The notes beneath the pieces were generated by a model that was given only the letters and a program-made list of their open reading frames with translations, had not been told where the DNA came from and ran no database searches. This document shows, piece by piece, positions 1,022 to 58,325 of a DNA stretch of 64,000 bases. The position numbers were made by a program, and so were the translations under genes. Within the stretch, counting starts at the first letter, position 1, and each line of letters opens with the position of its first letter. The stretch is from Schmidtea polychroa. Lineage: Eukaryota. The DNA is taken from contig CM097885.1 of assembly GCA_044892525.1 (NCBI GenBank), positions 14,076,001 to 14,140,000 on the forward strand, in the 5' to 3' direction.

Positions 1022-1023
<2 letters not shown>

Positions 1024-1090
<67 letters not shown>

Positions 1091-2712: not shown

Positions 2713-4191
2713 GGTTGGGATGGGTATATTGATGTTTAAAAAGTAAAATATTCATAAATGCTTTTAAGTAAGAGTTACAAATCTATCAGTGACATTAGGA
2801 CGTAGAAACAACACACACGCCAGATTCTGAGTTGTTTGCCAACCGAAACTCTATTACTATCCAAACACCTGTAATTTTGACTTGAACAACCTTCTATTTC
2901 TGATATACCTAAAGAAATTCAGGCTCCAAAATATTATCTTGTACTCTTTCGAGTTAGGATCACCCTGGTTGTCTTATTATCTTATATTTTTCATATCTTC
3001 AAGATTTTAAGATAAATTTCGTTGTTTGTTAAAAAGTAAAATTCATTCATAAAATTTATCATATTTGTTAATTTAAATATATATTTTCTTAAAATCCTTT
3101 TTGTTTAAATAATATTGTATTTGAAAATTTTGCGAATGAAAAAGTGAATAAATTAATGAAATGTTACTTTATTTAATATTAAATCAGGTCACTAGCTCTT
3201 AAAAAGGATCTCAATACAAATGCAAATGGTGGGCGAAGCAATACAGAGTAACTATAGTATTATTATTATTATTATTATATTAACAATAATATTATTAGTA
3301 AATCAGACCCGAGACCTTTAAGAGATCCTAACCCAAATTTCATGAAAGATGCAAAACATAAATTATTTAAAGTAATCCATTTCATTATTAAAAGAAAGCA
3401 CCGATTACCCTAATCGAATCGACATCTCTAATTTTGGTAAACTTACCCAAACAGATGTGAAAGCAATTTTCGAACATTTTATCAGTATTGTTGTTCCGGA
3501 TTTTCGTTTAAATGCCTCACAAATAGCTGCCGAAGATCAAATTTTAAGGCACTAATCAATTTGATATAACACAATTTTAGTATTGCAATTAGGTTTTTTA
3601 CTGCCATTCAGTACAGCAATAATTTCTCCAAAACTCATTAAACATCACCGGCGATTTTCTCGTCAGTTCCACTCGTCATAGGAGCGTTTGATTTGTTGAG
3701 GCGATTTGTCAGCGCTTATATTCGGGTGAATTTTAATTTCATTTCAAATTTTGATTATTTTGATTATAATTATTATTCAAATTAATTTATATTAAATGTT
3801 TTTGATTTAATTATATAATTAATATTATTATGCTGTTGATATTGCAATTGGCAAGTTGCCGTGAGCGCTCCTTGATATAATTTTGATAAAAAGTATAATT
3901 TAAGAGCTTGAATAATGATCTCATATCTATATGGATCAATATTCAAGCCTTAAAGTTTACTTTAAATAAAAATAAATTACTCGAAAGCCATTGGCTAAAT
4001 TCAAAAAGTTAAAATATCTAAATAAAATAGCTAAGTTAAATTCCAAAAAAATTCTTCATAAAGAAGAAAGTTGGTTGTACATACAATTCACTCATCATTC
4101 ACTCCGCAATATAAAATAAAATTATGATATTACTACTTTTAAAAAATGATATGATATTAAAATAAAATAAACTAAGGCCAATATAACCAAT

Positions 4192-4650
4192 TTAATGCGA
4201 CTTTTGTGCCTGTTTTTTATTGGAAAGTAATTGGATATGAGGTTCGAGCTTAGTAACACGTAATTTGAGTTGGCCTTCCAAATGAACATCAGTTATCTGT
4301 GTCTTTAAATCGGTTTTAATTTGTGTTAGATATGAAAAAGTGGATTCGCAACAGTAAGTAGTTCCAAAGCAAGAAAGGGTATTCAGTTGCGTTTCCCCAT
4401 ATTTTCCCATAGGATTGTTCTTTAAATCAAAAAGGGATTTTTAATATTATCTTCACATAACTCAAACAATTCCATCTGTAGTTCGCTCGGCGCCTTTGCG
4501 ATATCAACTAGATGTCGTTCAAATGCTAATTTCATTTCAGAGTCAGAAAACCGTTCAGTATATTCTTCAATTAATGAGTCCACAACAGCAATATAGACAT
4601 CTTGAAATAGGAAAGTCTTTTTTTGGGAAAGTTGATTTTTCACATAAATC
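4192..4650 (-). mobile_element. hAT (Charlie/GTF2IRD2-like) transposase C-terminal remnant
   Basis: FGTTYCCESTFSYLTQIK..ITDVHLEGQLKL..KKQAQKSH, typical hAT dimerisation-domain C-terminus; frameshifted. Confidence 0.8.
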
Positions 4651-5639
4651 TAAAAATGGTGGAAAAATATTAAAATTTTTCTTTAAAAAGTGTATCACAA
4701 TTACAAATCATTATATCAATTCAAATATCAGTTATTATCAAAAATCTGATTAATTATTATTTATTTTACTAATATTTTGTTTTAAATCGTGCGCCAATTA
4801 TTCAGATAACACAATTAATATAATTACTCGGTTATGCAATTTTATATTAACAAGTATGCATTTTTATAGATTTAAAAAAAAATAAAAATTCGAAAAATAA
4901 ATAATAGATTAATAAATAGATTAATAAATAGATTAATAAATAGATTAATAAATTAAGTAAATTAATAAATAAATAGATTATTAAATTAATCACGATAATT
5001 AAGTACGATAACTCATCTATTTTTTATTTATTTATGATTTCATATTGATTTGCTTGAGATATTCCTATCGAATCGGTTTCCTAGGTACTCGGACACAATC
5101 AATCAGATCGAGGATTTCCAAGAGAAATTAGTGAGAAAGCGAGCGCAATTGCAGCAATCGAAATTGGAAATGGAAGAATTTAAACAAACGACCCGATCGA
5201 TGGAGCTCGAGATTGATGACGTGAAATTCCATTTGCAGAAAATATTTGCCGATGTTTATAATATTGTAATTGGTTTATTTGTATTTTTATTTATTATTTA
5301 CTTTACGGATGGAAATTTTGGCGCGATTTCATTGGCTCGCCACTTTGATTTTATTTTGCCGCATCCTAAATTCGATAATATTTGCCCTTAATCGATTATT
5401 TTTTATCAATATTTTACTGATTATTTCAATAATAATCTACATTTTATTAATTTTTTTATTGATTATTTTTTATCCATATTTTATTGATTCATTTTATCCA
5501 TATTTTTATTGATAACCTTTTCTAATTATTTATTAATATTTTTCATTTTTTAATAAACACTTATCAATTATTTTTATTAATAATTTCACTGATTATTTTT
5601 ATCAATATTTTATTAATTATTGAGCGATTGAGGAAATCG

Positions 5640-6430
5640 ATCGTAATCATCACTAGGAAATTATATTCGAATGGTCAGTGAAAGAATGGTAATGTCTAAT
5701 TGTAAAAGCAGGTTAGGAAGTGTAAACAATTGGTTAAAGTTGTCGGGATATCGGTGCAACTTTCAAATTGATGTGCTAAAGTTTACGAGTTATTTAAAAC
5801 GCAAAACAGTTTTGCATTGGAATGTTTAGAAGGGAATAATTAAAGTACGAAATAAAAAAGGATATTTTCTGTTGAATATGCAAAAAATGAATCCAATGAT
5901 GGCCTGAAAATGAAAGCATGAAGATATAAATGCGTTTTAAAGAATTATTTTGAAGAAAATCGAGTAGAATGCAGGAGGAAATTAAAATATACTCCAAATA
6001 AGGCCTGGTAAAGCAAAATTATTTACAATAAAAATAGGTTGAACATGAACAAGAGTTTAGAGATCAAATTCCTGTTAAATGCGAACACATGAAGGTTTTT
6101 AAATCAAATATACTGAAACATGAAAATATGGAGACAATAAATGTTTGGACAATGAAGCTTCAGAGTAGAACGGAAGAGAGAATATTTCAGCGTAATTATA
6201 ATGAAATTAAAACAATTCCGAGTAGATCAGATGAGATTGTGATGGGGAGGAATAGTTGGGGGACGAGTTCGAGAAATAAAATGTAAAGGATGGTAACAAC
6301 AATAATCGAAGGAGATGAAATATTGAGACAAAAGTAGAACTAGCAGAATCGACAAGTTAGAAACCAAAAAACTAAAAAGATAAACGGAAATTAAACTGGA
6401 GTAGCAGGAAGGACAATTCACCATATTATC
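5640..6430 (-). mobile_element. Highly degraded LINE (CR1/L2-like) RT C-terminal remnant in NDC80 intron; second copy about 55158-55948
   Basis: Fragments such as DLLGIV and TRPYLEY (compare LVRPHLEY) in broken frames. Confidence 0.35.
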
Positions 6431-8344
6431 CGATATTAATCCAATAAGTAGTTGTAATTCATACCTGAGAAAATGTGCCTGAATTCAGACAGCTAGTATT
6501 TACATCTGTATAAAATAGTAATATTACTATTCAAATATCATTTATTAAATCAATTTATTATATTAATATCGATTCAATTTGTTATATATTCATGAAATTA
6601 TATTTGTGCTAGAATTTATGTATTAACTTTTATGTTTTCATAATTTTTAATTATCCCCTTGACCTCTCCTGCTCTCCCTTCTTCCTGCAGTTGACAGCGG
6701 CCCCCGTTGAGAAATGATTTCAATAATCATTTATCTAAATCAGAATCGCGATAAATATGCGGAAAACTATTACTCTATATCTGATTACCTAAATTTTATA
6801 GAATCTGCAAGAATTGGAATATTATAAATTCTATATAAAATCAAATGATATGTTTGTCGCAACTAATGGCAAATTTATATCGGGATATCAATTAAAAACC
6901 CCAAAAATAATAATGTACTTACAATCATTTAAAAGATTTATTTACAAAACTTAATCTCTGCAATTAACCCAGTGGCGTCTTCATTTTAAAATTTCTCTTG
7001 TTAACCTTGTATTTGTATTTTCCCATTAAAATTTGACATGTAATTGCCTGTGAAATGATTAATTGTTCCAGTTAGGCCTTAATATTTCATCGTTTTTAAT
7101 AGCAACTGAATGCCGAGCAGAATTTCACAATTCATAACTGATCGAATTCAGCTTACAATTTATTCAATATAGATTATATAAGATTTATAGAGATTTCGAT
7201 AAGATTATTTTATGGCAAAATTCCACAATAATTTTATTCCATCGATAGCACATTTTAACTGCTTCCTTAGCATCACTTTCTCGCTAATCTTGGCTGTTAT
7301 TTGTATAATTTCATGTATTTTTCATACTTACATTTTATATAAAACTGACTTGATAACCAAATCCTCTCATCTTTTGTTATTATAATATTATAATGATTAT
7401 TGTATTATCATTTAATAATCAATATTTTATATGATATAAAATGTTTGGCAATAGCTATTGGAGCTAATATTAATTGTGGATGCTATAATGACAATAATGG
7501 CAAATGACCACCGTACTTTCAAAATAGACTTAGACTTTTTTTTACCTCTCATTTCAGTTCCCAGACTTAGTCAAAGAAGAAATTCGTCAAGAAATCACGG
7601 ATTTTAATTTCGAATATCTGCTAAATTACGATGGTTATTTGCGACCTTATATATCAAACTTGATATCTGTTATTGAAGAGAAGACCCAAATCAGGCGAGA
7701 GGAATTACAGGAACACATAAGACAAAGCGAAGATTTAAAAAGGAACGCTGAAGTTTTGGTATGGGTAAATTGATATAAACCGAAGTTATTTAGTTCATAG
7801 AAAAGTGATATAAAATTGTTGGAATTCGAGAATCGAATAGCTGTCAAGAATTTGAATGAAAATGAGACGATTTGCCTGACATTGTAGGAGGAATCTGCGG
7901 AACATTGTAAAGCCATTCAGAATTTAACGGATCAAGTTGGTCATCATCGCGATCTCAATGATTACATGGATCAGAAACTCGTCGAGATAAAGGTAGGGTT
8001 CAAGAATCAATAAGTCCTAAAGATGTAGAGATTTAGAAGCGATTCGAGGAAGAGAAAAGTACATTTCAGGAAGCAAGTCAATTCTATGAAGTTGATATTG
8101 ATTTGAAGCAAGATTGTGCTGACATTCGACTGCAAAGCCTCCAGGAAAGTCATGATTTTAGAGAATCAGTAATGAAATGGAATACGGCATTATTTGAAGG
8201 AGAAAAAGAAAATAGTAAATCATTTGAAGCTGGCCTAGAAAAGCGCAAAAGAGAACTGATGAAACATTTTACCAAGGAACTTGCAGTAATCGATGAAAAG
8301 TTTAAATTTTGATCTTGTTATTGATGTTACTTTGTTATAATACA

Positions 8345-8917
8345 CAGTGCTCGAAGTGAGGCGGGATAGCCGGGATATTATCCCGGCATTGATTATGTAG
8401 GCGGAATTGCATCCCGGCACTACATTTCATATAATCTATAGGTTTATCCCGGTACTTATTTCATTTTATAGGCACACAAATACTGCAATTAAGGTCACAC
8501 ATAGTACATCCATATATGTATGTATATATATATATTCTTTATTCTCTATTCTCTATTCAATTAAGAATTTCCCAAGCAGCAGTAATGGATAGGTAGGTAT
8601 ATTCTCTTATTTATTTTAGTTAAACCAGCAAGTTGTTTGTTGAGTTATTTATACTGCGACCCCCTCTATATATAATGTGTGCATGATTTCACATGCAGAG
8701 AGCTGTTATAATTAACGTGATAAGAAAACATATATGTGCTACGCAGATATACATACACATGCACATATTGACAATCACAATATGTAAGAGATATGTAAGA
8801 TAGGACCACCCAAAGTTTTGCAACACCCCCAACTGAAAATTTCTGCATAAAAGCCTGGAATCCCGGGTGCCAAAGCATGCCTATCCCGGCACATATTTTG
8901 TTCCACTTCGAGCACTG
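8345..8917. mobile_element. hAT-family MITE, 573 bp
   Basis: 14-bp TIR CAGTGCTCGAAGTG; 8-bp TSD ATAATACA/ATAGTACA; empty site at about 57853-57860; second copy at 61632-62104. Confidence 0.9.
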
Positions 8918-9990: not shown

Positions 9991-10198
9991 AAAGTGAATA
10001 AATTAATGAAATGTTACATTATTTAATATTAAATCAGGTCACTCTTTAAAAGAATCTCATTACAAATCCAAATGGTTCGTGAACATTGCACGACAACAAG
10101 ATTATACCAGCATAAGGAATGAGTCGATCCACTACGGATCTGTTTCACCTACAAATGTCGATAAAAAAGGCAAATTCAGTCGATTTTAGTAATAAGAT

Positions 10199-13242: not shown

Positions 13243-13996
13243 AGTTCTGAAAATTTTCTTTTTTATCCAATTTTACATATTTGCATTCCATTAATATAAT
13301 TTCTCTCATAATATAATATTATAATCATAAATATTATCAATCCTACTGATTAGGGGCCAATTTTGATAATCTCAACTGCGATTATCATGGAGTTGAATTA
13401 CAATTGCTTCTACTTGCAAGGGCCACCCTTTATCTCATAATTATATTCTTGAGGTAATCAATTCTTTTATTTCTGTCATAAAATTTTGAAAATTAAATAT
13501 AAATATAAATTATTCAGTGATAAAATTCATTTATATATCGAAATCAAAATGTGAAAAGAATTAACTACTGAATAATTTATCAGTAGAATTGAATTATTCA
13601 ATAAAATTAAGTTTTTACTTTATTAGTTTGTGCCACCTGGGACGGTCCTTAACTTTGCCTCCTCTCCCCATATAATTATCTAACATAAAGTCTGATCTAA
13701 CTAAGAATGTGTAATAAATATATTTTTATCCTTTATGTAAAAAATTTGTTTTATTTAAAAATTATGTTGTAATAAAATATGTTATAAAATAATGCATGGT
13801 CAATTTATTACAATAATTATGCTTGATGAATAAAGTTGTGACAATATTAATTGACAAATTCGAATCGTTCTGAATTTTATTTAAATAAATTTTTACAAAT
13901 ATAATTCTAAAATGCAAAATAAAAATAAAAAAACAGAAAAATAATTTTATTGAAAATATCTCTCGCAATCTTCCTTCAGAAAACCTTTCCAACAAT

Positions 13997-14625
13997 CTAC
14001 TGAAATGATTTACAACTCTTCAAGTATTCTGATGATAATTTCCCTGTTGCTTCCAATGCCTCGTACAGTCCATCACCGGAAACTGCACAACATGCCTGCA
14101 GGTGCCATTTGTGAGTGCGCTCCAGTTTCGATAATTCTAACTCTTCCACAATTCTACTTGGTGACATGGCATTTGGTAAATCTTGTTTGTTTGCAATCAC
14201 CACTATTGGAATCTGAATCAATGTTAAACATTTCGATTTCCTATCAAATCTAGATTTACATTTCTCATCTCGTCACATTCAGCAATCGTAAATAATTCAT
14301 CTCTTGATTCCTTCAACCTTTCCACATCATTCCTGTCCACTACATAAATCAATCCATGGCAATTTGTATAGTAATGTCTCCATAACTGTCGAATCTTCTC
14401 TTGACCTCCCACATCCCAAATTGTGAATTTCAAACCTTTCCCAATTGAAACTTCCTCCACATTGAATCCGATTGTTGGAATCGTTGTCACAGTTTCATTG
14501 AGTTTCAATTTGTATAGAATTGTGGTTTTACCAGCAGCATCCAATCCCAACATTAGGATTCTCCTTGGATCAGATTGAGACAACTCGTTTAGCAAATTGT
14601 ATAATATAATCAAAAGTATTCCGAT
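13997..14625 (-). pseudogene. ARF-family GTPase copy 2, start codon lost
   Basis: Colinear with copy 1 (629 nt, intron 14259-14213), but ATG is ATC at 14625-14623 with an in-frame TAA just upstream; VVDSN is changed to VVDRN. Confidence 0.85.
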
Positions 14626-14829
14626 TTAATACAATAATGAAATGGAATAATAAAAATCATAGAAAATATTGAATATTTATAGTGATTCTGAATTGCATCA
14701 AATTCTCCACCGTGGATTGAATGACAACGCGTTTCTAAAAATAGTAACAGAAATTTCAACATTTTCTGATTGGTCATTTAGAATAATTAATGCCACTCTA
14801 TCACAGACTTAAACAATAGATTGATGACG

Positions 14830-15031
<202 letters not shown>

Positions 15032-15620
15032 AAAATTATTGGATTTAATTACAATATATGTGGTGAGTGCAAATTTTATGTTTATAATTAACTATTTAAA
15101 TAAATAATTATTTATTATAAAAATACACAAAAACTAATTCTTATAACGTTTATTAAAATTTACAAAAAAAAATCTTTAGATAGAGATCATAAAATCTTTC
15201 TAACTCTCATAAAGTTTATAAAGTTCAAATTTTAATAAATTTAATCCCGCGATCCTTATTTTTTAATTCTTCCTTGACAATTTTTGTCATTGATTTTTTG
15301 TTTTTAAATTTAAAATTTAATTTTAATTATGATAATAATAACAACAAACGTGTGACAATAAACATAAGGATCACGTACAGCACAGTCACCAACTAAATTG
15401 CAGCACCAACGTCTCTTGCGATGGGCATTTAGTATTAAAATCAATAGTTATGTGTAGTTAAGAAAAGAAATATTGTAAAGTGTGAGCAACAGCAGGAAGA
15501 GGCCGACATTTTCAAGGATAAAAATAGATTTTACTCCCAACTTGTAATCTACCTTTAGAAATAGAGCTCGCCTCCTTATTTATTTTCAACTGTGTACATT
15601 CCCAACCTGGTGATTGGCAA

Positions 15621-16334
15621 GGTAACCCGTCAAATGGGCCTCGATAATATGACCCCAATATTACGGCCCACATTATAAAGGCCCATGGCAAAACGGCCCT
15701 GAAAAAAGGGCCTCTGATATAAGAGTCTTTGGCAAAAACGATCCCTGTCAAAAGGGCTCACGCCAAAAGAATCGCGTAAATAGAAATATTTGTATGTAGA
15801 AAAGAAAAATTGTACGTATGTTGACTTCGAAACGACGTCATCTGTAACTTTTTAAGACTGTTTAAAATAGATTCTATATGTTTGTTATTATACATGCATA
15901 TAGTACCATGTAAATGTTTTTGGCAAGAGAGTAGTTTGAATATCATATGGACCTGGAGAGGCCGGAATAGAAATTTGGCACGAATTTGATCAATCTTGTT
16001 AGTGAAGAATTCACGGAATGCGTTAGCAAGAGTAGATGTATCAGGCTGGTCAGGAAGAGAATATGTGTCGGTGAGATAAAATAGAATTTAGGGTTTTCCA
16101 GAGCGAGTGTGGATAAGTTTATAGTTCTTGATCGTGTATGAAACTTCCGGAAACAGTGTGTTTTTGTATATTTAGTGTTTAAGCGCTTCTATTGTTGGGA
16201 CCCTTTTAAAAGGGTCGTTTTTTCGGGGCCTTTATATCAGAAGCTAATTTGCCGGAGGCATTGATGTCGGTGGCCGTAATATCTTTGTCATTTTGACGGG
16301 GCCGTTTTGTCCTGGGCCCTTTTGACGGGACACC
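15621..16334. mobile_element. MULE/foldback-like element, copy 2 (same insertion site, duplicated with the unit)
   Basis: GGTAACCCGTCAAA..TTTGACGGGACACC termini; flanks GATTGGCAA/GGTTGGCAC. Confidence 0.75.
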
Positions 16335-16729
16335 GGTTGGCACGGGTATATTGATGTTAAAAAAATTAACCTAAATATTCATAAATATTGAATACTAATA
16401 TATAAGTGACAAGCCAGATTCTGAGTTGTTTGCCAAACGGAACTCTATTACTATCCAAACACCTGTAAGTTTGACTTGAACAACCTTCTAATTCTGATGT
16501 ACCTAAAGAAATTCAGGTTCCAAAATATTTTCTAGTACTCTTTCGAGTTAAGACCCATATGTTTGTCTTATTATCTTATATTTTTCATATCTTCAGGATA
16601 TCAAGATAAATTTCGTTGTTTGCTAAAAAGTAAAATTCATTCATAAAATTTATCAATTTTGTGAGTTTAAATATAAATTTTCATGAAATCTTTTTTGTTT
16701 AAATAATATTGTATTTGAAAAGTTTGCGA

Positions 16730-19700
16730 ATGAAAAAGTGAATAAATTAATGAAATGATACATTATTTAATATTAAATCAGGTCACTAGTTCCTATAAAG
16801 GATCTCAATACAAATGCAAATGGGGGGCAAAGCAATACAGAGTAACTATAGTATTATTATTATTATTATATTAACAATAATATTATTAGTAAATCAGACC
16901 CGAGACCTTTAAGAGATCCAAATTTCATGAAAGATGCAAAACATAAATTATTTAAAGTAATCCATTTCATTATTAAAAGAATTCGTAACAGAATTTTATA
17001 GTTTCTAGAAAGCACCGATTACCCTCATCGAATCGACAGCTCTAATTTTGGTAAACTTACCCAAACAGATGTGAAAGCAATTTTCGAACATTTTATCAGT
17101 ATTGTTGTTGCGGATTTTCGTTTAAATGACTCACAAATAGCTGCCGAAGATCAAATTTTACGGCACAAATCAATTTGATATAACACAATTTTAGTATTGC
17201 AATTAGCTGCATTTTACTGCCATTCAGTACAGCAATAATTTCTCCACAACTCATATAACATCAGCGGCGGCTTTCCCGTCAGTTCCACTCGTCATAGGAG
17301 CGTTTGATTTGTTGAGGCGATTTGTCAGCGCTTTTATTCGGGTGAATTTTAATTTCATTTCAAATTTTGATTATTTTGATTATAATTATTATTCAAATTA
17401 ATTTATATTAAATGTTTTTGATTTAATTATATAATTAATATTATTATGCTGTTGATATTGCAATTGGCAAGTTGCCGTGAGCGCTCCGCCACATAGAGCA
17501 GTTACAAATGCAAATCAAACTAATCTATCAGTTATTAATCTATCAAAGGAATTATCACAATAGTTATCTCACATAATAATTCAATAAATCAAATCAATAA
17601 TAATAAGGCAAATCAAAACCCAAAATAAATCAATTTTTATTGAAATCTTTTTTAATTTGTCATAATTTTTCAATTCTGCACCTGAGCAGCAATTTACCAC
17701 TTTTGAATCGAGCGAATGATTTTTGATGGGTGCAAGCATTTCTTTTTCATCTCATCAATTTGCTGTTGACATTTTGATTCAATCTGCCGAATTTCATTGG
17801 CGCATTTCACCATTTCAAGCTGCAGCTGAATCTCAAATTCAAACATTTAAATAAATCAATAATTCACCTTTTCATTCCCCTGTTGCAGCCGCTGCTCGCA
17901 TTTCTCTTTCATCTCATCAATTTGCTGTTGACATTTAGATTCAATCGCCTCAATTTGCTGCCTGACCTGCTTTGCATTAATAATAAATCAAATCAATAAT
18001 CAAACTTGATTGATTGATCCAATATTTGTCTCCATCTCCATTCTCAATGAGCGATTCTCATTCTTCAATGCCACCATTTCCTCATTCAATTCTTCTATTG
18101 ATAATTGATAATTTTTATTGATAATTTCATTACGCAATGTCACATTCTCGTCTCTCATTGCTTGCATCTCATTGCATAGATTACTGATCTGATCGATCAA
18201 TAATTTGCTATGGCCTTCATTATTCTCATTGAGATGGACTTTCATTTCGTCCTTATCCACCTCATTCATTTCGCATCCAATTCTATTGAATGGACATTTT
18301 ATTGGTTGCTTGTTGCATGTTCTCATGTGGCTTTCCATCACCTCTAATTCATCTTTGAATTGACAATTTTGCATTGGGCATCTCACTATCACTTCTGAAA
18401 TCCTTAAATTGGCTGCATGATCTTCAGAAACATCTTTATTGAAATTTATCATTTTCTTTCCACAATGTTTTCCTGCTCCTGGACAGAATTTATCTTTTCC
18501 ATCCAAATAATGTTCAATGCAATCAGAACAAAAGCGACAACCGCAAGGAGCTTGGCAAGCTTTTATCATTAAACACTTGCAAATTCTGCATATCAATTCA
18601 TTGCTGATTTCATTATCAAATTCAAATTTATTCCTCTTCATTATTTCCCATACACTTGCAAACATTTTATCTAAAATTAACAAAATTATAAAAATATTTC
18701 AACATTTTACAACATTCATAAATCATACTTATTATATTAATTATTTCCTCTGACGTTGACAATTTCAATATTTATAATTTGTATTTTGATGTAGATAAAC
18801 AAACATTTTATAAATATTGTATTTTAGCTTGAAATATTGTTAATGCTAATTTTTAGTGTTTTTCTCATTTATTTTAAATTTTACAAAATTATTTAAATTA
18901 TAATTTTATAACGAAATGTAAAATTTTAACATTTTTAACGGCAAACACAAATTAAAAATATATCAAAATATAAAATTAGATATTTTTCATAAAATATTAA
19001 AATATTGATCTAATGATTTCGTTATGGTTACACATATTTGTCTCACATTTTCTGATGTGTACAAGTTTCCTGTGAGCCCCATATTGACATTGTCACATTT
19101 TATTGTGCACAAAGCAATACTGATAAATTGGATTAGATTTAACACAATAAAAATTAAATTTTAACGAATTTTTGTATGATTTAATGAAATCTGTGATCGG
19201 TGCAGGGCCTAATTGACACGTAATTTTAATTGATTCTATCCATTGCAGTTCACTGTCCTGGTGCATGTAATGGTGGATGTGCTGGGGAATGTGCTGGGGA
19301 ATGTGCTGGGGAATGTGATGGATATATCTGCCTTTTCAATTTATTATTAATGCTAATGATAATAAATAATAATAATAATTTTAAATGACCCCGCTAAATT
19401 CAGACCGATCCTAAAATGCTTTTCCCGAGAATTATGAGTTATCGTATCTGCTCAGAAGTCGTTTTGGATTCTTTGATTTCCATTTACCGGACAATTGAAA
19501 ACGCTGAATTCAACGCTAATAATCTAATTGAACTTCAGGATGCCATTCGATACGAAATGGGAATCATATCAAGCAGTGAAATCATGAAAATCTCTCAGAA
19601 TGTCGACCAAATCGAAGAGATGCAAACGAATGTTCAACTCCTTGAATGCACTATCAGAGAAATCCGAGGAATCCAATCGAATTGACAATTGCATTGAGAC

Positions 19701-19887
19701 CGAGGATGGAAAGCATTCAAAATTGAAAGTGAAATCAGGTTGGTGGAATCCTGTACGTGATGAATCATTTATAGGAAATCCTTCACAAGCTGCAAATGGA
19801 AATCCGAGATGAAACCAATTGCTCAAATGCTATTACGAAAGAGAATTCACTCCTAGTTGCCAAGAGGAGTGAATACGAGGAGAAAGG
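16730..19887 (+). pseudogene. NDC80: NDC80 broken copy 2 (N-terminal and CH exons 16730-17341; middle exons 19404-19738 and 19775-19887; 3' exons absent)
   Basis: ATG at 16730; donor at 17342 and CAG acceptor at 19403 are in phase. Exon TDPKMLF..VLDSLISIY..ELQDAI resembles HEC1 LFLDYTIKCY..ELQSKL. Apparent frameshifts near 17207 and 19670-19740. Confidence 0.78.
17694..18665 (-). CDS. TRAF-like protein copy A: RING + zinc fingers + coiled coil, MATH domain deleted (about 295-300 aa; may be a pseudogene)
   Basis: ATG 18665; exons 18665-18006, 17969-17868, 17831-17694 with about 36-nt GT-AG introns. RING CRIC..CGCRFCSDC..CPG; TRAF ZnF CPMQNC..H..C. Frameshifted tail ends at TAA 17696-17694; remnant KLLLRCRIEKL* lies in another frame. 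Confidence 0.8.
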
Positions 19888-21688: not shown

Positions 21689-21990
<302 letters not shown>

Positions 21991-22841: not shown

Positions 22842-22865
<24 letters not shown>

Positions 22866-22872
<7 letters not shown>

Positions 22873-30762: not shown

Positions 30763-31158
30763 TAATTATATCAGGAAAATTCAATTTTATTATGACAATT
30801 CAATTTTATTTGTCTGTGTCGAAAATGTATTATTCCATTCATATGGTGGTAGTGTGACAATTCAATTTTAGATAATTTGTGATCAAATATGTGACTTAAT
30901 TATTTTTTATTTATTTTATGGATTTATATTTTATGGTGTAAATAATTGTTCATCTTTTATTTTTACGACTTATCATTTTATTTCATACATAAAATCTTAA
31001 CTACATAATTTAGGATCGGAATTTCTTTATTAATGATATTACATTAGTGGCCAAGGACCAAATGTGAAGCAGTTCAGAGTATATTGCGTAATTCAATACA
31101 ATGTATTAGTTATTACGCAATATACATTACTATTTACAATATACATTACAATATACAT

Positions 31159-31790
31159 TATTGATCTAATGATCTCGTTATGGTTACAAATATTTGTTTG
31201 ACATTTTCTAATGTGTACAAGTTTCCTGTGAGCCCCATATTGACATTTTCACATTTTATTGTGACAAAGGTGCAATTATAAAATGTCAAATGTACAAAGC
31301 AATACTGATAAATTGGATTAGATATAACACAATAAAAACTAATTTGTAGCGGATTTTTGTATGATTTTATGAAATCTTTGATCGGTGCAGGGCCTAATTG
31401 ACACGTAATTTTAATTGATTCTATCCAATCGTATTGCAGTTCACTGTGCTACTGCATGTGATGGTGAATGTGATGGATATATATACCCTGTTTGCACTCA
31501 ATAAACGCACCTATAATATAAATAATAATAAATTAATTATTAAATAGATTAATAAATAAATTGATAAATAGATTAATGAATAAATAAATTATTAAATAAA
31601 TTAATAAATGGATTAATTAATAAATAAATTAATAAATAGACAAATAAATTAATTAATTTATAAATAAATAGATTCTCTCTCTGCTTTCGCCTTTCAAGCG
31701 CATTTCCTCTTGCTTTATTTATATTATCCAAATTGCTTTCGATTTTTTTAATTCTTGTAGAATTGCAAAACTTATCTGGCAGCTAATTCA
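31159..31790. repeat. Fourth partial copy of the TRAF-upstream/NDC80 intron region
   Basis: 31159-31485 matches 19005-19330 and 53137-53465; 31710-31790 matches 54138-54230; exons absent. Confidence 0.8.
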
Positions 31791-40350: not shown

Positions 40351-40569
40351 AGGAGTATTAGGATTCTCATCCGTTACAACAATAATATCTTTTTGCAAAT
40401 CACTAAATAATTCCATAAATTTTATTCAATAAATTTTTCTCTCAAAAACCTGTCTTTCTTAGTTTTATTATTAAACAAATTTCAATTTTCCTTTTAAAAT
40501 ATTTTTCGATAAAAATATTTTTTTTAAATTTAACAAAATTTCTAATTAAATCTTTAAGAATCTATCAAC

Positions 40570-43665: not shown

Positions 43666-43700
43666 AATTTATTACAATAATTATGCTTGATGAATAAAAT

Positions 43701-44732
43701 TGTTGGGTTTTTAGTTAATTTAAGTCGGTTACCTCTGACTCCTCGTGTCCTTTAAATCAAAACAATAACGACCCAACGTATATTGAAATAATAAAATTTA
43801 CAATCTTTTCTCAACACTCAATAATAGTCAAAGTTACGTTTGACCGATTGTCCGCTCGGTGTTGATGCTTTGATAAAGATAATATTCACCTTTTATTCCC
43901 TTAAGTTCTCTTGACCAACGTTTTCCTTTTTTCCTTTAATTTGATCCTTTCTCACTCTTTTTATTCTTATTCTATCTCTTCTTTTTCCCTAATCCCCTAA
44001 ATTCGTTTTTACCTTTTCCTAAGCTCGATTTCTTCTAACCCTAGCTGAGGCAAAAGGTCGATTTGCTCTGATTTTCCCCTTCCTTATATACTCTTCGAAA
44101 TCGGGATGACGAATAGTTATTGTCGAGCCAATCTTTCACTTGACATTTGCTTTCACGTATCTGCTTTGGCTGTCACCCATAATGGTCCAACGAACAAAGA
44201 TAATTAATGGCCCGTCCGGCCTTTCTACACGCACTATCTTCTCCTTGCTCTTTTCCAACTAATCATTGTGTCAAGCTAATGGGCCCAAATCTTCCTTCTG
44301 TTTACTTTTCTTCTTGTTTACCCAGCTCGGGTTTCCTTCATCTCTCGGGTTCTCCATTGGCTCGGGTTTCCCATTAGCTCGGGTTTTCTATTAGCCAATT
44401 AATTAATTAATATACGTTTTCTATTTGTACACATTTGAATGCTTTTCGACCTTTCCTAACAATTTTATGATAAATCCCTAATCATCATCTTGTTGAACAT
44501 TAGCTAATCTATACCGCTCCCGTTTTCCCAATTTGATTTAGATGATTTTACAATTTATTGATTTTTCTCGGATTTCCGGATTCTAGCCTTTCGCAATTGC
44601 TTTTGGCATTTTCTAATACTGCTTCCATCACACTTTCCTTTACTATCAATTCTGCTCATGATCCCGCTTTTATTTGTCTTTTTTCTTACCCTAAATTTCA
44701 TTTAAATTTATTTTAATTTACGGACCTCAACA
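43701..44732 (-). mobile_element. Solo LTR, 1032 bp (Gypsy-like)
   Basis: TGTTG..CAACA ends; 4-bp TSD AAAT; empty site at about 21-35; minus-strand TATATAA near 44085 and AATAAA near 43894; internal CTCGGGTTT repeats. Confidence 0.85.
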
Positions 44733-44896
44733 AAATTGTGATAATATTAATTGACAAATTTGCATCGTTCTGAATTTCATTTAAATAAATTTTTACAAAT
44801 ATAATTCAAAAATACAAAATCAAAATAAAAAAACAGAAAAATAATTTTATTGAAAATATGTCTCGCAATCTCCCTTCAGAAAACCTTTCCAACAAT

Positions 44897-45514
44897 CTAC
44901 CGAAATGATTTACAATTCTTCAAGTATTCTGATGATAATTTCCCTGCTGCTTCCAATGCCTCGTACAGTCCATCACCAGAAACTGCACAACATGCCTGCA
45001 GGTGCCAATTGTGAGTGCGCTCCAGTTTCGATAATTCTAACCCTTCCACAATTCTACTTGGTGACATGGCATTTGGTAAATCTTGTTAGTTTGCAATCAC
45101 CACTATTGGAATCTGAATCAATGTTAAACATTTCAATTTCCTATCAAATCTAGATTTACATTTCTCATCTCGTCACATTCAGCAATCGTAAATAATTCAT
45201 CTCTTCATTCCTTCAACCTTTCCACATCATTGCTGTCCACTACATAAATCAATCCATGACAATTCGTATAGTAATGTCTCCATAACTGTCGAATCTTCTC
45301 TTGACCTCCCACATCCCAAATTGTGAATTTCAAACCTTTCCCAATTGAGATTTCCTCCACATTGAATGCGATTGTTGGAATCGTTGTCACAGTTTCATTG
45401 AGTTTCAATTTGTATAGAATTGTGGTTTTACCAGCAGCATCCAATCCCAACATTAGGATTCTCCTTGGATCAGATTGAGACAACTCGTTTAGCAATTTGT
45501 ATAATCTACTCAAA
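44897..45514 (-). pseudogene. ARF-family GTPase copy 3
   Basis: 88-bp deletion (TCAAA microhomology) removes ATG, 5' UTR and TATA; TCA to TGA nonsense at 45207-45205; IGFN changed to IAFN; intron 45159-45113 retained. Confidence 0.92.
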
Positions 45515-45641
45515 TTCTCCACCGTGGATTGAATGACAACGCGTTTCTAAAAACAGTAATAGAAATTTCAATATTTTCTGATTGGTCATTTAGAATAATT
45601 AATGCCATTCTATCAAAGACTTAAAAAATAGATTGATAACG

Positions 45642-45857
<216 letters not shown>

Positions 45858-46487: not shown

Positions 46488-46592
46488 ATTATTATTATTA
46501 TTATTATTAAAATTATTGGATTTAATTACAATGTAAATGGTGTGTGCAAATTTTATATTTATAATTAACTATTTAAATAATTAATTATTTAG

Positions 46593-50361: not shown

Positions 50362-51322
50362 TGTTGGCACGGGTATATTGATGATAACATAGTAAAATAT
50401 TCATAAATGCTTTTAAGTAAGAGTTGATTACAAATCTATCAGCGACTCTAGGATATGGAAACAACACACATTCCAGATTCTGAGTTAACTGCCAACAGAA
50501 ACTCTATTAATATCCAAAAATCTGTAATCTTGACTTGAACAACCTTTTACTTCGGATGAACCTAACGAAATTCAGGTTCCAAAATATTTTCTTGTACTCT
50601 TTCGAGATCCACCTGGTTGTCTTATTATCTTATATTTTTCATATCTTCAGGATTTCAAGATAAATTTCGTTGTTTGTTAAAAAGTAAAATTCATTCATAA
50701 AATTTATCATATTTGTGAATTTAAATATAAATTTTCATGAAATCTTATTTGTTTAAATAATATTGTATTTGAAAATTTTGCGAATGAAAAAGTGAATAAA
50801 TTAATGAAATGTTACTTTATTTAATATTAAATCAGGTCACTAGCTCTTAAAAAGGATCTCAATACAACTGCAAATGGTGGGCGAAGCAATACAGAGTAAC
50901 TATAGTATTATTATTATTATTATATTAACAATAATATTATTAGTAAATCAGACCCGAGACCTTTAAGAGATCCAAATTTCATGAAAGATGCAAAGCATAA
51001 ATTATTCAAAGTAATTCATTTCATTATTAAAAGAATTCGTAACAGAATTTTATAGTTTCTAGAAAGCACCGATTACCCTCATCGAATCGACAGCTCTAAT
51101 TTTGGTAAACTTACCCAAACAGATGTGAAAGCAATTTTCGAACATTTTATCAGTATTGTTGTTCCGGATTTTCGTTTAAATGCCTCACAAATAGCTGCCG
51201 AAGATCAAATTTGATGATGATGATGATGACCACAATAATAATCTCATATAATAAATATAATAGAAAAAGGCAAACAGTAAAACAAATCAAAACCCAAAAT
51301 AAATCAATTTTTCTTTAATTTG

Positions 51323-52806
51323 TCATAATTTTTCGATTCTGCGCCTGAGCAGCAATTTATCACTTTTGTCTGCTAATTGATAGATTGATCTGTCATCACC
51401 AATAGAATAATAACTGGCAATTGGATTATTTTTGTCATCTAACGGTTTCCCCCATCCGACATCATCAAACCAACCTGAATATTTTATTGACTTGCTCATA
51501 TAAATGCTGCCATTTGCTGGATCGATCACATCGATTGTCACGGATTGTTTGAACGGCCAATCCAATTGCTCATCATTTGCCCCACGCATCAAACAGAAAC
51601 CAGCAAACACCCAATCATCCCCAATGCTCACCCACAAGCACATTTTGTAACCGATTGGCCCCGAATAAAATGTGTCGCTGTAAATATCTTCTCTTCTCTT
51701 TTGTTGTGAAAATTTATCGATTTGCCATTCAAAAAATCCATAATTTCTATATTTTTCATTCCCTTGTCGCTCGCATTTCTCTTTCATCTCATCAATTTCC
51801 TGTTGACATTTTGATTCAATCTGCCGAATTTCATTGGCGCATTTCGCCATTTTAAGCTGCAACTGAATCTCAAATTCAAACATTTCAATAAATCACCTTT
51901 TTATTCCCCTGCTGAAGCCGCTGCTCGCATTTCTTTTTCATCGCATCAATTTGCTGTTGGCATTTTGATTCAATCTGCCGTATTTCATTGGCGCATTTCG
52001 CCATTTCAAGCAGCAACTGAATCTTAAATTCAAACATTTCAATAAATCAATAAATCACCTTGTCATTCTTCTGTTGCAGCCGCTGCTCGCATTTCTCTTT
52101 CATCTCATCAATTTGCTGTTGACATTTTGATTCAATCACATCAATTTGCTGTCTGATCTGCTTTGCATCAATAATAAATCAAATCAATAATCAAACTTGA
52201 TTGATTGATCCAATATTTGTCTCCCTCTCCATTCTCAGTGAGCGATTCTCATTCTTCAATGCCACCATTTCCTCATTCAATTCTTCTATTTCTCCTCTGT
52301 TCTCCGCCTCTTTCTTTTCTATATTGCACAATTTCACCTACAATCACAGATATCAATTAAATTAATTACAAATACAATTTTACAATTTCGTTTTTATCCA
52401 CCTCATTCATTTCGCATCCAATTCTATTGAATGGACATTTTATTGGTTGCTTGTTGCATGTTCTCATGTGGCTCTCCATCACCTCTAATTCATCTTTGAA
52501 TTGACAATTTTGCATTGGGCATCTCACTATCACTTCTGAAATCCTTAAATTGGCTGCATGATCTTCAGAAACATCTTTATTGAAATTTATCATTTTCTTT
52601 CCACAATGTTTTGCTGCTCCTGGACAGAATTTCTCTTTTCCATCCAAATAATGTTCAATGCAATCAGAACAAAAGCCACAACCGCAAGGAGCTTGGCAAG
52701 CTTTTATCATTAAACATTTGCAAATTCTGCATATCAATTCATTGCTGATTTCATTATCAAATTCAAATTTATTCCGCCTCATCATTTCCCATACGTTTCC
52801 AAACAT
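51323..52806 (-). CDS. TRAF-family protein copy B: RING, zinc finger, coiled coil, MATH/TRAF-C (about 440 aa)
   Basis: ATG 52806; exons 52806-52384, 52337-52197, 52160-52059, 52022-51897, about 51862-51323, with all introns phase 0 GT-AG. MATH motifs FEWQIDKF, FYSGPIGYKMCL, LMRGANDEQLDWPF. Confidence 0.88.
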
Positions 52807-53490
52807 TTTATCTAAAATTAATAAAATTATCAAAATATTTCAACATTTTACAACATTCATAAATCATACTTATTATATTAATTACCTTGACAATTTCAAT
52901 ATTTATAATTTGTATTTTGATGTAGATAAACAAACATTTTATAAATATTGTATTTTAGCTTTAAATATTGTTAATGCTAATTTTCAGTGTTTTTCTCATT
53001 TATTTTAAATCTTACAAAATTATTTAAATTACAATTTGATAACGAAATGTAAAATTTTAACATTTTTAACGGCAAACACAAAATAAAAATATATCAAAAT
53101 ATAAAAATAAATATTTTTCATAAAATATTAAAATATTGATCTAATGATCTCGTTATGGTTACCAATATTTGTCTGGCATTTTCTGATGTGTACAAGTTTC
53201 CTGTGAGCCCCATATTGACATTTTCACATTTTATTGTGACAAAGGTGCAATGATTAAATATAAAATTATAAAATGTCAAATGCACAAAGCAATACTGATA
53301 AATTGGATTAGATTTAACACAATAAAAATTAAATTTTAACTAATTTTTTGTATGATTTTATGAAATCTTTAATCGGTGCAAGGCCTAATTGACACGTAAT
53401 TTTAATTGATTCTATCCAATCTTATTGCAGTTCACATTGCTGGTACATGTGATGGATATATCTGCCTTATCAATTTATTATTAATGCTAA

Positions 53491-53660
<170 letters not shown>

Positions 53661-54368
53661 AATTTTAAACGACCCCGCTACAATCAGACCGATTCTAAAA
53701 TGCTAAATTTTCTAATTTCATTCATTTCAAAAATATTTTTCGTATGAGTAGTAAAAAGTTAGATTAGTAAATAGATTAATAAATAAAATATTAAATAGAT
53801 TAACAAATAATTTATTGAATAAATAGAATTAATAGGTAGATTAATTAATTAATAAATAGATAAATAAATTAATAAATAGATTAATGAATAAATTAATTAT
53901 TAAATAGATAGATTAATAAATAATTTTATAAATAATTTAATGAATAAATAAATTAATAAATTGATTAATAAATAAATTAATAGAATAAATAAATTAATAA
54001 AAATATTAATAAATAGTTTATTAAATTAATCAAAAAACAGATAAATAAATTATTTTTACTTTTATTTATTTCACTCATTTATTTTTTTATTTTCTCTTTC
54101 TCTATTTTGACCTTTTCTACTTTTCATTTCTCACTCTGCTTTATTTATATTATCCAAATTGCTTTCGATTTTTTTAATTCTTGTAGTAATTTCTGAAAAA
54201 TTGCAAAACTTATCTGGCAGCTAATTCAGCCTCCAAACATTTAATGGAGAATTAGTAAATTAGATTTAGAATTATTTTTAATTATTTAAAAATAAAAAAA
54301 ATCTGAAATTAATTGTTAATTTTTTAGTTTAGAATAATAATTTATAAAAATAATTTAATTGCTAATGA

Positions 54369-54521: not shown

Positions 54522-57500
54522 AGGAAATTAGGTCCACAAAATCAAGCACGATAACTCATCTATTTTTTATTTATTTATGATTTCATATTGATTTGCTTGA
54601 GATATTCCTATCGACTCGGTTTCCTAGGTACTCGGACACAATCAATCAGATCGAGGATTTCCAAGAGAAATTAGTGAGAAAGCGAGCGCAATTGCAGCAA
54701 TCAAAATTGGAAATGGAAGAATTTAAACAAACGACCCGATCGATGGAGCTCGAGATTGATGACGTGAAATTCCATTTGCAGAAAATATTTGCCGATGTTT
54801 ATAATATTGTAATTGGTTTATTTGTATTTTTATTTATTATTTACGTTACGGATGGAAATTTTGGCGCGATTTCATTGGCTCGCCACTTTGATTTTATTTT
54901 GCCGCATCCTAAATTCGATAATATTTGCCCTTAATCGATTATTTTTTATCAATATTTTATTGATTATTTCAATAATAATCTACATTTTATTAATTTTTTT
55001 ATTGATTATTTTTTATCCATATTTTATTGATAACCTTTTCTAATTATTTATTAATATTTTTCATTTTTTAATAAACACTTATCAATTATTTTTATTAATA
55101 ATTTCACTGATTATTTTTATCAATATTTTATTAATTATTGAGCGATTGAGGAAATCGATCGTAATCATCACTAGGAAATTATATTCGAATGGTCAGTGAA
55201 AGAATGGTAATGTCTAATTGTAAAAGCAGGTTAGGAAGTGTAAACAATTGGTTAAAGTTGTCGGGATATCGGTGCAACTTTCAAATTGATGTGCTAAAGT
55301 TTACGAGTTATTTAAAACGCAAAACAGTTTTGCATTGGAATGTTTAGAAGGGAATAATTAAAGTACGAAATAAAAAAGGATATTTTCTGTTGAATATGCA
55401 AAAAATGAATCCAATGATGGCCTGAAAATGAAAGCGTGAAGATATAAATGCGTTATAAAGAATTATTTTGAAGAAAATCGAGTAGAATGCAGGAGGAAAT
55501 TAAAATATACTCCAAATAAGGCCTGGTAAAGCAAAATTATTTACAATAAAAATAGGTTGAACATGAACAAGAGCTTAGAGATCAAATTCCTGTTAAATGC
55601 GAACACATGAAGGTTTTTAAATCAAATATACTGAAACATGAAAATATGGAGACAATAAATGTTTGGACAATGAAGCTTCAGAGTAGAACGGAAGAGAGAA
55701 TATTTCAGCGTAATTATAATGAAATTAAAACAATTCCGAGTAGATCAGATGGGATTGTGATGGGGAGGAATAGTTGGGGGACGAGTTCGAGAAATAAAAT
55801 GTAAAGGATGGTAACAACAATAATCGAAGGAGATGAAATATTGAGACAAAAGTAGAACTAGCAGAATCGACAAGTTAGAAACCAAAAAACTAAAAAGATA
55901 AACGGAAATTAAACTGGAGTAGCAGGAAGGACAATTCACCATATTATCCGATATTAATCCAATAAGTAGTTGTAATTCATACCTGAGAAAATGTGCCTGA
56001 ATTCAGACAGCTAGTATTTACATCTGTATAAAATAGTAATATTACTATTTAAATATCATTTATTAAATCAATTTATTATATTAATATCGATTCAATTTGT
56101 TATATATTCATGAAATTATATTTGTGCTAGAATTTATGTATTAACTTTTATGTTTTCATAATTTTTAATTATCCCCTTGACCTCTCCTGCTCTCCCTTCT
56201 TCCTGCAGTTGACAGCGGCCCCTGTTGAGAAATGATTTCATTAATCATTTATCTAAATCAGAATCGCGATAAATATGCGGAAAACTATTACTCTATATCT
56301 GATTACCTAAATTTTATAGAATCTGCAAGAATTGGAATATTATAAATTCTATATAAAATCAAATGATATGTTTGTCGCAACTAATGGCAAATTTATATCG
56401 GGATATCAATTAAAAACCCCAAAAATAATAATGTACTTACAATCATTTAAAAGATTTATTTACAAAACTTAATCTCTGCAATTAACCCAGTGGCGTCTTC
56501 ATTTTAAAATTTCTCTTGTTAACCTTGTATTTGTATTTTCCCATTAAAATTTGACATGTAATTGCCTGTGAAATGATTAATTGTTCCAGTTAGGCCTTAA
56601 TATTTCATCGTTTTTAATAGCAACTGAATGCCGAGCAGAATTTCACAATTCATAACTGATCGAATTCAGCTTACAATTTATTCAATATAGATTATATAAG
56701 ATTTATAGAGATTTCGATAAGATTATTTTATGGCAAAATTCCACAATAATTTTATTCCATCGATAGCACATTTTAACTGCTTCCTTAGCATCACTTTCTC
56801 GCTAATCTTGGCTGTTATTTGTATAATTTCATGTATTTTTCATACTTACATTTTATATAAAACTGACTTGATAACCAAATCCTCTCATCTTTTGTTATTA
56901 TAATATTATAATGATTATTGTATTATCATTTAATAATCAATATTTTATATGATATAAAATGTTTGGCAATAGCTATTGGAGCTAATATTAATTGTGGATG
57001 CTATAATGACAATAATGGCAAATGACCACCGTACTTTCAATAGACTTGGACTTTTTTTTACCTCTCATTTCAGTTCCAAGGCTTAGTCAAAGAAGAAATT
57101 CGTCAAGAAATCACGGATTTTAATTTCGAATATCTGCTAAATTACGATGGTCATTTGCGACCTTATATATCAAACTTGATATCTGTTATTGAAGAGAAGA
57201 CCCAAATCAGGCGAGAGGAATTACAGGAACACATAAGACAAAGCGAAGATTTAAAAAGGAACGCTGAAGTTTTGGTATGGGTTAATTGATATAAACCGAA
57301 GTTATTTAGTTCATAGAAAAGTGATATAAAATTGTTGGAATTCGAGAATCGAATAGCTGTCAAGAATTTGAATGAAAATGAGACGATTTGCCTGACATTG
57401 CAGGAGGAATCTGCGGAACATTGTAAAGCCATTCAGAATTTAACGGATCAAGTTGGTCATCATCGCGATCTCAATGATTACATGGATCAGAAACTCGTCG

Positions 57501-58325
57501 AGATAAAGGTAGGGTTCAAGAATCAATAAGTCCTAAAGATGTAGAGATTTAGAAGCGATTCGAGGAAGAGAAAAGTACATTTCAGGAAGCAAGTCAATTC
57601 TATGAAGTTGATATTGATTTGAAGCAAGATTGTGCTGACATTCGACTGCAAAGCCTCCAGGAAAGTCATGATTTTAGAGAATCAGTAATGAAAGGGAATA
57701 CGGCATTATTTGAAGGAGAAAAAGAAAATAGTAAATCATTTGAAGCTGGCCTAGAAAAGCGCAAAAGAGAACTGATGAAACATTTTACCAAGGAACTTGC
57801 AGTAATAGATGAAAAGTTTAAATTTTGATCTTGTTATTGATGTTACTTTGTTATAATACATGTTTTTATTTTTGTTATTTTATCATTTACTGAAGCCTTT
57901 TTTAATTTATTAACTCAGATTCATTTACAATTTTTTTAATTAAAAATTATATATAAAATTTTTATTTAGGTGGTTAATAGTGAGTAATTTAATGAGATCA
58001 TGATGTAAATGTTTTAGAAATAAAAACGTGATGCTATCAGTCAAAATTTGTATAAAAGTAAAGCTGGTAAACAAAATAATATAATAAGTTTTTTACATAA
58101 AATTCTTAATTTTCTATTTTAAATATATCATTAATAAACTACTGATAAATTGTCAATATTATATATTGATTTTATTATATAAGAATTTATAGTGGCAAAT
58201 AAACATTTAGAGTTAGATATGTACACAGCCACAATAAGATAACGATTGCATAATTTAACACCACACTTCGTCGATATTTGAATTCAGAGGGTCAGATTTA
58301 CTATAGAAACGCTCTAAGAGTAATA

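Follow-up and report, generated by a model that had tools for sequence, protein, structure and literature searches.

The question raised by this locus is whether a working NDC80 gene can be read from a stretch of DNA in which the gene occurs only in pieces. NDC80/HEC1 acts in a complex with Nuf2, Spc24 and Spc25 and binds microtubules. The window, by which we mean the whole stretch analysed (64,000 nt of Schmidtea polychroa, GCA_044892525.1, CM097885.1, 14,076,001-14,140,000, forward strand), holds three tandem units in which an ARF-family GTPase gene stands head-to-head with NDC80 and an antisense TRAF gene is nested in an NDC80 intron, TRAF being kept in units 2 and 3 of the three. The units are 97.0-98.5% identical across the 5' exon region, with introns retained, and the ARF copies are 97.1-97.4% identical; the promoter regions diverge by 12-16%, and the NDC80 3' parts of units 1 and 3 show their 98.5% identity over 3.3 kb. 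Between the units lies debris of retroelements and DNA transposons. Unit-specific transposon insertions show target-site duplications, with the corresponding site empty in the other unit, and the window also contains a DDE_1 element. Further remnants at 9991 and 31147 suggest more than three copies. The genes beside NDC80 show a similar decay: ARF is open in one of three units and TRAF in one of the two units carrying it; the spliced path of the open TRAF gene was found with an intron A+T filter of 0.70, and not with 0.75 or 0.78.

Table 1. Coordinates of the ARF, NDC80 and TRAF features, in window positions
Feature	Position	Strand	Remarks
Unit 1 ARF-family GTPase gene	189..817	-	open, 193 aa; one 47-nt intron, 405-451; Pfam Arf 157 bits
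Unit 1 NDC80 5' exons 1-5	3136..3725	+	first stop at aa 69
Unit 1 NDC80 3' exons A-D	5085-5265, 7558-7758, 7801-7992, 8037-8312	+	stop at 8312; 98.5% to unit 3
Further NDC80 intron 1 / exon 2 remnant	9991..10076	+	88-90% to all three units; abuts sequence downstream of unit 1
Unit 2 ARF copy	13997..14625	-	without start codon; dead
Unit 2 NDC80 5' exons	16730-16737, 16782-16841, 16890-16956, 17002-17162, 17207-17341	+	Pfam Ndc80_HEC 31.3 bits
Unit 2 TRAF copy	17556..18665	-	RING, zinc finger, coiled coil; MATH domain deleted; inside NDC80 intron
NDC80 middle exons (sole copy in window)	19404-19728, 19775-19887	+	end in GG at 19887
NDC80 intron remnant flanking absent middle exons (TRAF upstream region and AT-rich repeat)	31147..31790	+	79-82% to 18990-19285 and 53121-53620
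Unit 3 ARF copy	44897..45514	-	5' end deleted, two in-frame stops; dead
Unit 3 NDC80 exons 1-4	50784..51211	+	ended by TGA run; would encode 97 aa; Pfam Ndc80_HEC 34.0 bits
Unit 3 TRAF gene	51323..52806	-	open, 443 aa: RING, zf-TRAF, coiled-coil repeats, MATH; four GT-AG introns of 34-46 nt
Unit 3 deletion scar	53638..53969	+	counterpart of unit 2 19421-19935 (nearly all middle exons) gone
Unit 3 NDC80 3' exons A-D	54628-54808, 57074-57274, 57317-57508, 57553-57828	+	frame open to stop at 57828

The identity of the gene was examined with profile and protein searches. Read through the in-frame 45-nt intron, the unit 2 and unit 3 queries both scored above the Pfam gathering cut-off of Ndc80_HEC (PF03801, 25.1 bits) and matched no other family, which upholds the assignment to NDC80. 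Exons 3 and 4 taken singly matched profile positions 29-48 and 50-93, again as the sole family. Exon 5, which would supply the remainder of the CH domain (profile 95-147), gave no Pfam match when taken alone; extending the read-through into it did not lengthen the match (29.6 bits) and returned septins only from the PDB, at E about 0.4. The contig with the CH exons also carries exon 5, in its only open frame. With an E limit of 10 the PDB yielded four matches, every one of them NDC80 (8g0q, 8v11, 5tcs, 5td8), at E values of 0.7-1.2 that are weak alone. Of the likeness to HEC1 claimed along the whole length, profile positions 29-94 of 147 stand, while no tool supports the rest. Exon B, which may resemble the loop or post-loop segment specific to NDC80, gave weak unrelated matches only (best atlas score 0.87, a low recognition below 0.9), and exons B-D are joined to the model by splice phase alone. 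No NDC80 relative was found among the 37 candidates of the exon D protein search or the 3 of the CH read-through search, a search of 1.84 billion proteins returned three matches, each a repeat protein lacking an Ndc80 domain, and the middle exon had no relatives among 156 pattern matches in metagenome contigs. Compared with NDC80/HEC1, the window gene shares the DPRPL motif, a CH domain whose first half scores above the Pfam cut-off and long coiled-coil exons that follow on the same contig; it is unlike it in being very divergent, in an N-terminal tail of only about 24 aa in the model and in that all copies in the window are broken. The first coiled-coil exons share a contig with the CH exons and thus do not belong to another transcript. 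The gene model, in identity and exon order, is therefore largely correct.

The reading frame is a different matter. The sequence-only reading had proposed an unbroken chain of splice phases through micro-exons. Its starts (ATG at 3136, 16730 and 50784), its GT-AG introns (5' part: 44, 48-51 and 45 nt; 3' part: 42 and 44 nt), its exon end at 19887, its 3' starts at 5085 and 54628 and its stops at 8312 and 57828 all hold, but the chain is interrupted by stops at aa 69, at aa 116, at 19683 and at 7885, and "micro-exons" overstates the case, the coding exons being 60-325 nt long except for the 8-nt first exon. Each copy in the window carries a disabling lesion, and no copy is whole, as had been stated. 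In unit 1, exon 3 has a duplication of 6 nt, a 29-nt deletion took away the exon-4 acceptor, exon 5 has an additional TAA downstream of the aa-69 stop, and the 3' part has a premature TAG at 7885. In unit 2 the frame is lost at the exon 4/5 junction: a 44-nt GC-AG intron (17163-17206) does not preserve it and, when this intron is spliced, the protein stops at aa 116. The intron at 17342-19403, which houses the TRAF copy, is 2062 nt long, and the middle exon that follows is 2 nt shorter than in the spliced contigs described below, so that its frame ends at 19683. Unit 3 would yield the truncated CH product of exactly 97 aa, with the TGA run at its end, that had been foreseen at approximate length, and its 3' exons keep 282 open codons. 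The reported distribution was confirmed as well: within the window, unit 2 alone holds the middle exons, and units 1 and 3 alone hold the 3' exons. Of 572 reference codons, 541 survive along the best open path that stays colinear and uses GT-AG introns (553 if GC donors are allowed), and this path requires cryptic introns at 17107-17206 and 19632-19668, both of which the spliced contigs read straight across; at the exon 4/5 junction, 15 GT/GC-AG pairs restore the frame, each costing at least 20 coding letters. Given the sole middle exon, the out-of-frame exon 4/5 junction and the cryptic introns that are needed, a complete frame thus cannot be rebuilt from the three copies unless they are repaired.

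Contigs from four of 16 sequencing runs (X1, X5, X7 and X9) were compared with the window. None of the 16 is recorded as RNA; X7 and X9, from two studies, are treated as such because of one indication only, a GT..AG joint of exon 5 to the middle exon that skips intron 17342-19403 and is missing in X1 and X5. The same absence speaks against a processed retrocopy as the origin of these contigs, though contigs cannot prove that a joint is absent. The X9 contig (1186 nt) runs through exons 4-5 and the middle exons and continues for 233 letters past 19889, and the loose end of X7 past the shared GT agrees with unit 3 exon A at 30 of 30 letters. The first letters of the exon after 19887 are identical in units 1 and 3, so the junction does not reveal whether that exon stems from unit 1, from unit 3 or from a parent. 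Compared with unit 2, the X9 contig shows 10 differences in 339 letters and 12 in 487 (22 of 826), both contigs have the middle exon 2 nt longer than unit 2, they carry the unit 1 letter at six of seven shown 5' sites, and some of their letters, such as that at 17288 and others within the middle exon, occur in no unit. Given that they differ from unit 2 to this extent and side with unit 1, the contigs come from another copy or allele. Of the proposed 19887-to-54628 junction, they show the passage from 19887 to the following exon, but they do not demonstrate splicing of unit 2 to unit 3. Both contigs retain introns of 44 and 46 nt, have the same length as unit 2 at the exon 4/5 junction and do not show an open frame. 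Other versions of the middle exon exist as DNA, since run X5 has 10 of 11 shown middle-exon variants, and in run X1, which matches the window best, one contig shows 8 differences from it over 19662-19975. An X1 contig is identical to unit 2 across 19233-19410, and the 5' part shows many variants among the DNA runs. X1 cover is near zero at 19501-19663, to which no weight was given, and summed contig depth was discarded as a measure of copy number, which by the tool's own description it is not.

In the 5' part, the private changes of unit 2 look neutral: 2 are synonymous and 10 are non-synonymous, where random change would give a synonymous share of 0.23. The middle-exon differences are synonymous in 7 of 11 cases (p = 0.002; p = 0.004 if a twelfth, unshown difference is counted as non-synonymous), and the synonymous shares of the two parts differ with a Fisher p of 0.04-0.07. 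The middle exon thus appears to have been recently under selection, unlike the 5' part.

We consider it about two-thirds probable that the NDC80 pieces are decaying duplicates of a tandem block and that the working NDC80 lies outside the window. Segmental duplication would have produced the units and parts would then have been lost at random; independent deletions would leave just such complementary units. The array may have been maintained through the presumed survival of ARF in unit 1 and of TRAF in unit 3; the spliced contigs would derive from the parent gene. Against this count the synonymous excess of the middle exon, the open 3' exons of unit 3, the possibility that the contigs represent this locus in another strain, as a different allele, and the missing open frame in the contigs themselves. 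Alternatively, this would be the real NDC80 locus, the duplication having landed in the intron past the middle exon so that a 34.7-kb intron joins unit 2 to the unit 3 3' exons, with the lesions due to a dead allele or assembly errors. The order is colinear, the phases agree at 19887/54628, the 3' frame of unit 3 is open, the interfering internal exons are lost from unit 3, the middle exon looks selected, and the X7 or X9 strain may differ from the assembled one; however, the contigs side with unit 1, the private 5' changes of unit 2 are mostly non-synonymous, its ARF and TRAF are dead too, and X1 carries another version of the middle exon, and we regard this as unlikely. Quite unlikely is a bolder form, in which a working gene would span two units via that intron (inside which would lie retroelements, a live TRAF, and both an ARF and a second NDC80 start that are dead), the duplicate's middle exons would have been purged and the dose would be gated by two short detained introns.

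The contigs could also be transcribed dead members of an amplified family, with the working gene in neither window nor contigs. This would suit the two kept introns and the out-of-frame exon 4/5 length in both contigs, as well as the many 5' variants in DNA runs, but the middle-exon frame is restored in the contigs and their differences from unit 2 there are mostly synonymous; moreover, three undisplayed substitutions in 17002-17340 could change a splice site, and rare forms are dropped from contigs, so that we find it very unlikely. Trans-splicing or exon borrowing among units into one protein has in its favour that all exons are present across the units and that mixing them in any order retains 560 of 572 reference codons; it is scarcely credible with the sole middle exon frameshifted and with contigs that are no mosaic of window letters. 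An assembly artefact (uncollapsed haplotypes or mis-joins), which the 98.5% identity of the unit 1 and unit 3 3' parts might suggest, appears equally far-fetched in view of the divergent promoters, the unit-specific transposon insertions and the X1 contig that equals unit 2 exactly over 19233-19410.

Unprocessed pseudogenes in tandem segmental duplications retain introns and promoter, acquire independent lesions, are co-duplicated with their neighbours and leave different genes surviving in each unit. The window NDC80 copies, which keep introns and promoter and bear deletions, stops and frameshifts, resemble them; the antisense TRAF in a host intron and the one exon with a synonymous excess do not. 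With the planarian TRAF expansion, as described in the accessible part of PMC6109357 (121 MATH domains and a Tigger-type DDE_1 expansion in S. mediterranea), the window shares a multi-copy RING, zinc finger, coiled coil and MATH gene, an AT-rich animal and a DDE_1 element; that part of the paper does not mention a TRAF nested in NDC80. According to the accessible part of PMC4978528, intron retention in planarian stem cells disrupts the frame in 56.2% of 12,276 events, and the introns retained exceed the average length and belong to differentiation genes, unlike the NDC80 ones, which are 44-46 nt long, lie in a mitotic gene and are known from contigs alone. Literature listings, in which most subscription papers are missing, showed no paper that deals with copies of NDC80 in planarians, with a TRAF gene nested in NDC80 or with the retention of NDC80 introns in an animal of this kind.

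Ordinary duplication and decay is thus the best reading. The analysis provides an exon model of about 573 aa, with transcript backing, for an NDC80 that has diverged beyond what protein searches can find. Since TRAF resides inside an NDC80 intron, its amplification can drag pieces of NDC80 around, and such displaced pieces would confuse annotation, RNAi design and surveys of the presence or absence of kinetochore genes. The two introns kept in contigs of two studies are flagged here; if either the long-intron or the detained-intron reading were true, it would mean an unusual upkeep or regulation of an essential gene in a repeat-rich genome.

The window has a G+C content of ~30% with short GT-AG introns and, on self-comparison, shows three units in which an ARF gene is followed by a promoter with the NDC80 5' exons and then by TRAF, the latter being present in units 2 and 3 only. 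Named best matches of the ARF gene are nearly all animal, with molluscs, nemerteans and annelids at the top (60-70% identity). A planarian-like flatworm is the probable source, judging from the high A+T content, the many variants of TRAF and the presence of Tigger elements. The same self-comparison aligns 4997-8344 with 54540-57860 at 98.5% identity and detects additional block remnants at 9991 and 31147, which points to more than three copies. More local duplications (89-93%) are seen between units 2 and 3, outside the NDC80 block (22864-24541 vs 31797-33564; 25791-26931; 26181-26519 vs 30413-30763), and the window end (63879-63993) aligns at 75-80% with part of the ARF-NDC80 intergenic region, so that either a dispersed repeat or the beginning of another unit may be present here. 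Long TTA/TAA microsatellites occur at 14832-15030, 21689-21990, 45644-45857 and 53488-53663, their length being very unequal among units: upstream of ARF the copies number 24, 66 and 71. The short inverted-repeat element, which we take to be a hAT-type MITE, has an empty site in unit 3 near 57850, and the Tigger/pogo-like transposon, downstream of unit 3, has one in unit 1 near 9423. The LTR-retroelement pieces are apparently nested.

ARF copies and transposable elements in the window
Feature	Position	Strand	Evidence
ARF, unit 1	1-1098		self-comparison of window
ARF, unit 2	13808-14906		self-comparison of window
ARF, unit 3	44729-45719		self-comparison of window
Short element with terminal inverted repeats	8345-8917 and 61632-62104		8-bp target-site duplications: one mismatch (first), perfect (second)
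Tigger/pogo-like DNA transposon	~58328-60829		Pfam DDE_1 114.9 bits, inverted ends, TA duplication
LTR-retroelement pieces, broken	33769-40432	both	protease, reverse transcriptase, RNase H

Pfam assigns the pieces in the window to the NDC80 family. Exons 3 and 4 read through the in-frame 45-nt intron score 31.3 and 34.0 bits against Ndc80_HEC (cut-off 25.1), which is also the sole family matched by each exon individually, in profile order. All four PDB matches are NDC80, every one weak, and no NDC80-specific match was found for exon 5 in Pfam or for the coiled-coil exons in Pfam and the atlas search. The fragments are genuine and were correctly recognised by the sequence-only reading, whose NDC80 coordinates hold, as does the length of 97 aa for what unit 3 would encode. 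Its complete frame, rebuilt from three complementary broken copies, is however overstated, since the window's own letters give none and every unit is interrupted or incomplete. Unit 1 has lost the exon-4 acceptor, with a stop at aa 69, followed by a TAA in exon 5 and a TAG at 7885. In unit 2 the frame ends at aa 116 once the 44-nt GC-AG intron between exons 4 and 5 is removed, and the middle exon, single copy and found in this unit only, has a frame that stops at 19683. The 5' part of unit 3 terminates in a TGA run; this unit has no equivalent of 19421-19935, and the frame of its 3' exons is uninterrupted. For ARF an open frame of 193 aa is present in unit 1, and for TRAF one of 443 aa in unit 3; in unit 2 ARF has no start codon and TRAF no MATH domain.

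Of the 16 sequencing runs listed, four were aligned to 15100-19975, all as contigs: X1 and X5, which are DNA, and X7 and X9, putative RNA from two studies, the comparison resting on 40 of 363 substitutions and 15 of 89 joints. A joint 17341|19404 with GT..AG ends is present in both X7 and X9, its shorter side being 255 letters in X9 and only 29 in X7, and among the joints listed it was not seen in X1 or X5. Exon 2 is joined to exon 3 in an X7 loose end, and one X9 contig of 1186 nt runs from 17002-17340 to 19403-19889 and 233 letters beyond. The X7 loose end past 19889 has 179 letters, which is the remaining length of the 3' exon A, and its 30 displayed letters match exon A, where units 1 and 3 are identical. 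Together, the X9 span and the X7 match put exon A on one transcript with the CH and middle exons, so that the proposed exon order is borne out by the spliced contigs, and the joint and contig spans place TRAF within an NDC80 intron. The TRAF coiled coil (51769-52137) is expanded by a ~154-nt tandem repeat of 2.3 copies with an exon and its intron inside, and the minus-strand TRAF introns there show several variants in spliced contigs.

The X7 and X9 contigs are not derived from unit 2. X9 differs from it in 10/339 and 12/487 letters, and in both contigs the middle exon is 2 nt longer, which is what its frame requires. Six of the seven 5' differences listed (of 10) carry unit 1's letter, X5 DNA has 10 of the 11 middle-exon variants listed (of 12), and X1 has 3 of the 5 listed that it covers, one of its contigs showing 8 differences from unit 2 over 19662-19975. 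A minor X7 contig, found in X1 and X5 too, has a 1-nt loss at 17081 and an altered exon-4 start (17002-17003); it is a further broken NDC80 5' copy outside the window.

With a probability of about 0.68, we favour a tandem-duplicated ARF / NDC80 / nested-TRAF block that then decayed independently, with a working NDC80 elsewhere. The block would have been duplicated several times and its copies eroded by independent deletions, such that one unit would retain ARF, a different one TRAF and none of them NDC80; the functional NDC80 would sit at another locus. A single gene spanning units 2 and 3 via a 34.7-kb intron is rather unlikely. A search over all splice paths gives an open colinear path of 543 aa keeping 541/572 reference codons (553/572 with GC donors, 560/572 with units mixed in any order); in every case it needs a 37-nt cryptic intron at 19632-19668, with 57% A+T, the 7 other short introns on the list ranging over 61-90%, and neither X7 nor X9 contigs skip 19632-19668 or 17107-17206. 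The spliced junction after 19887 backs the gene model but lends no support to the suggested 19887-to-54628 splicing, because the contigs differ from unit 2. Complementation among the NDC80 copies, each with its own lesions, and an assembly artefact behind the three units both appear highly improbable, and it is also improbable, to a lesser degree, that the spliced contigs are transcribed dead copies.

The 44-nt intron and the 46-nt intron between the middle exons are unskipped in both contigs, record and window spans being equal except for 2 nt, so premature stops occur in the contigs as assembled. In X7 the GT-AG ends of the 46-nt intron are intact, since the five differences of that contig are all listed and all lie outside it. 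Given that both introns are weak (one with a GC donor, one with the lowest A+T among real introns), that contigs lose rare forms and that frame-breaking retention is common in planarians in the excerpted text of PMC4978528, partial splicing is the plain reading. The exon 4/5 junction has the same length in the contigs as in unit 2, where all 15 frame-restoring GT/GC-AG pairs cost at least 20 coding letters; that of unit 1 is 2 nt shorter and in frame. 5' substitutions beyond those listed may account for this puzzle. Of the 11 listed middle-exon differences between contigs and unit 2, 7 are synonymous (p = 0.002), fixing the two reading frames; this indicates that the middle exon remained under selection until recently, which counts against a simple decay story. 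Private 5' exon changes of unit 2 are 2 synonymous and 10 non-synonymous, near the random synonymous share of 0.23, the contrast between middle exon and 5' part being modest (Fisher p = 0.04-0.07).

A literature search at the level of listings found no paper on this locus. TRAF expansion is described for S. mediterranea in the excerpted text of PMC6109357, and Ndc80 is absent from the proteins named multi-copy in that of a kinetochore survey of 90 species (PMC5579357). Ordinary decay after duplication is most likely, the locus behaving as a set of unprocessed pseudogenes whose putative parent would lie outside the window.
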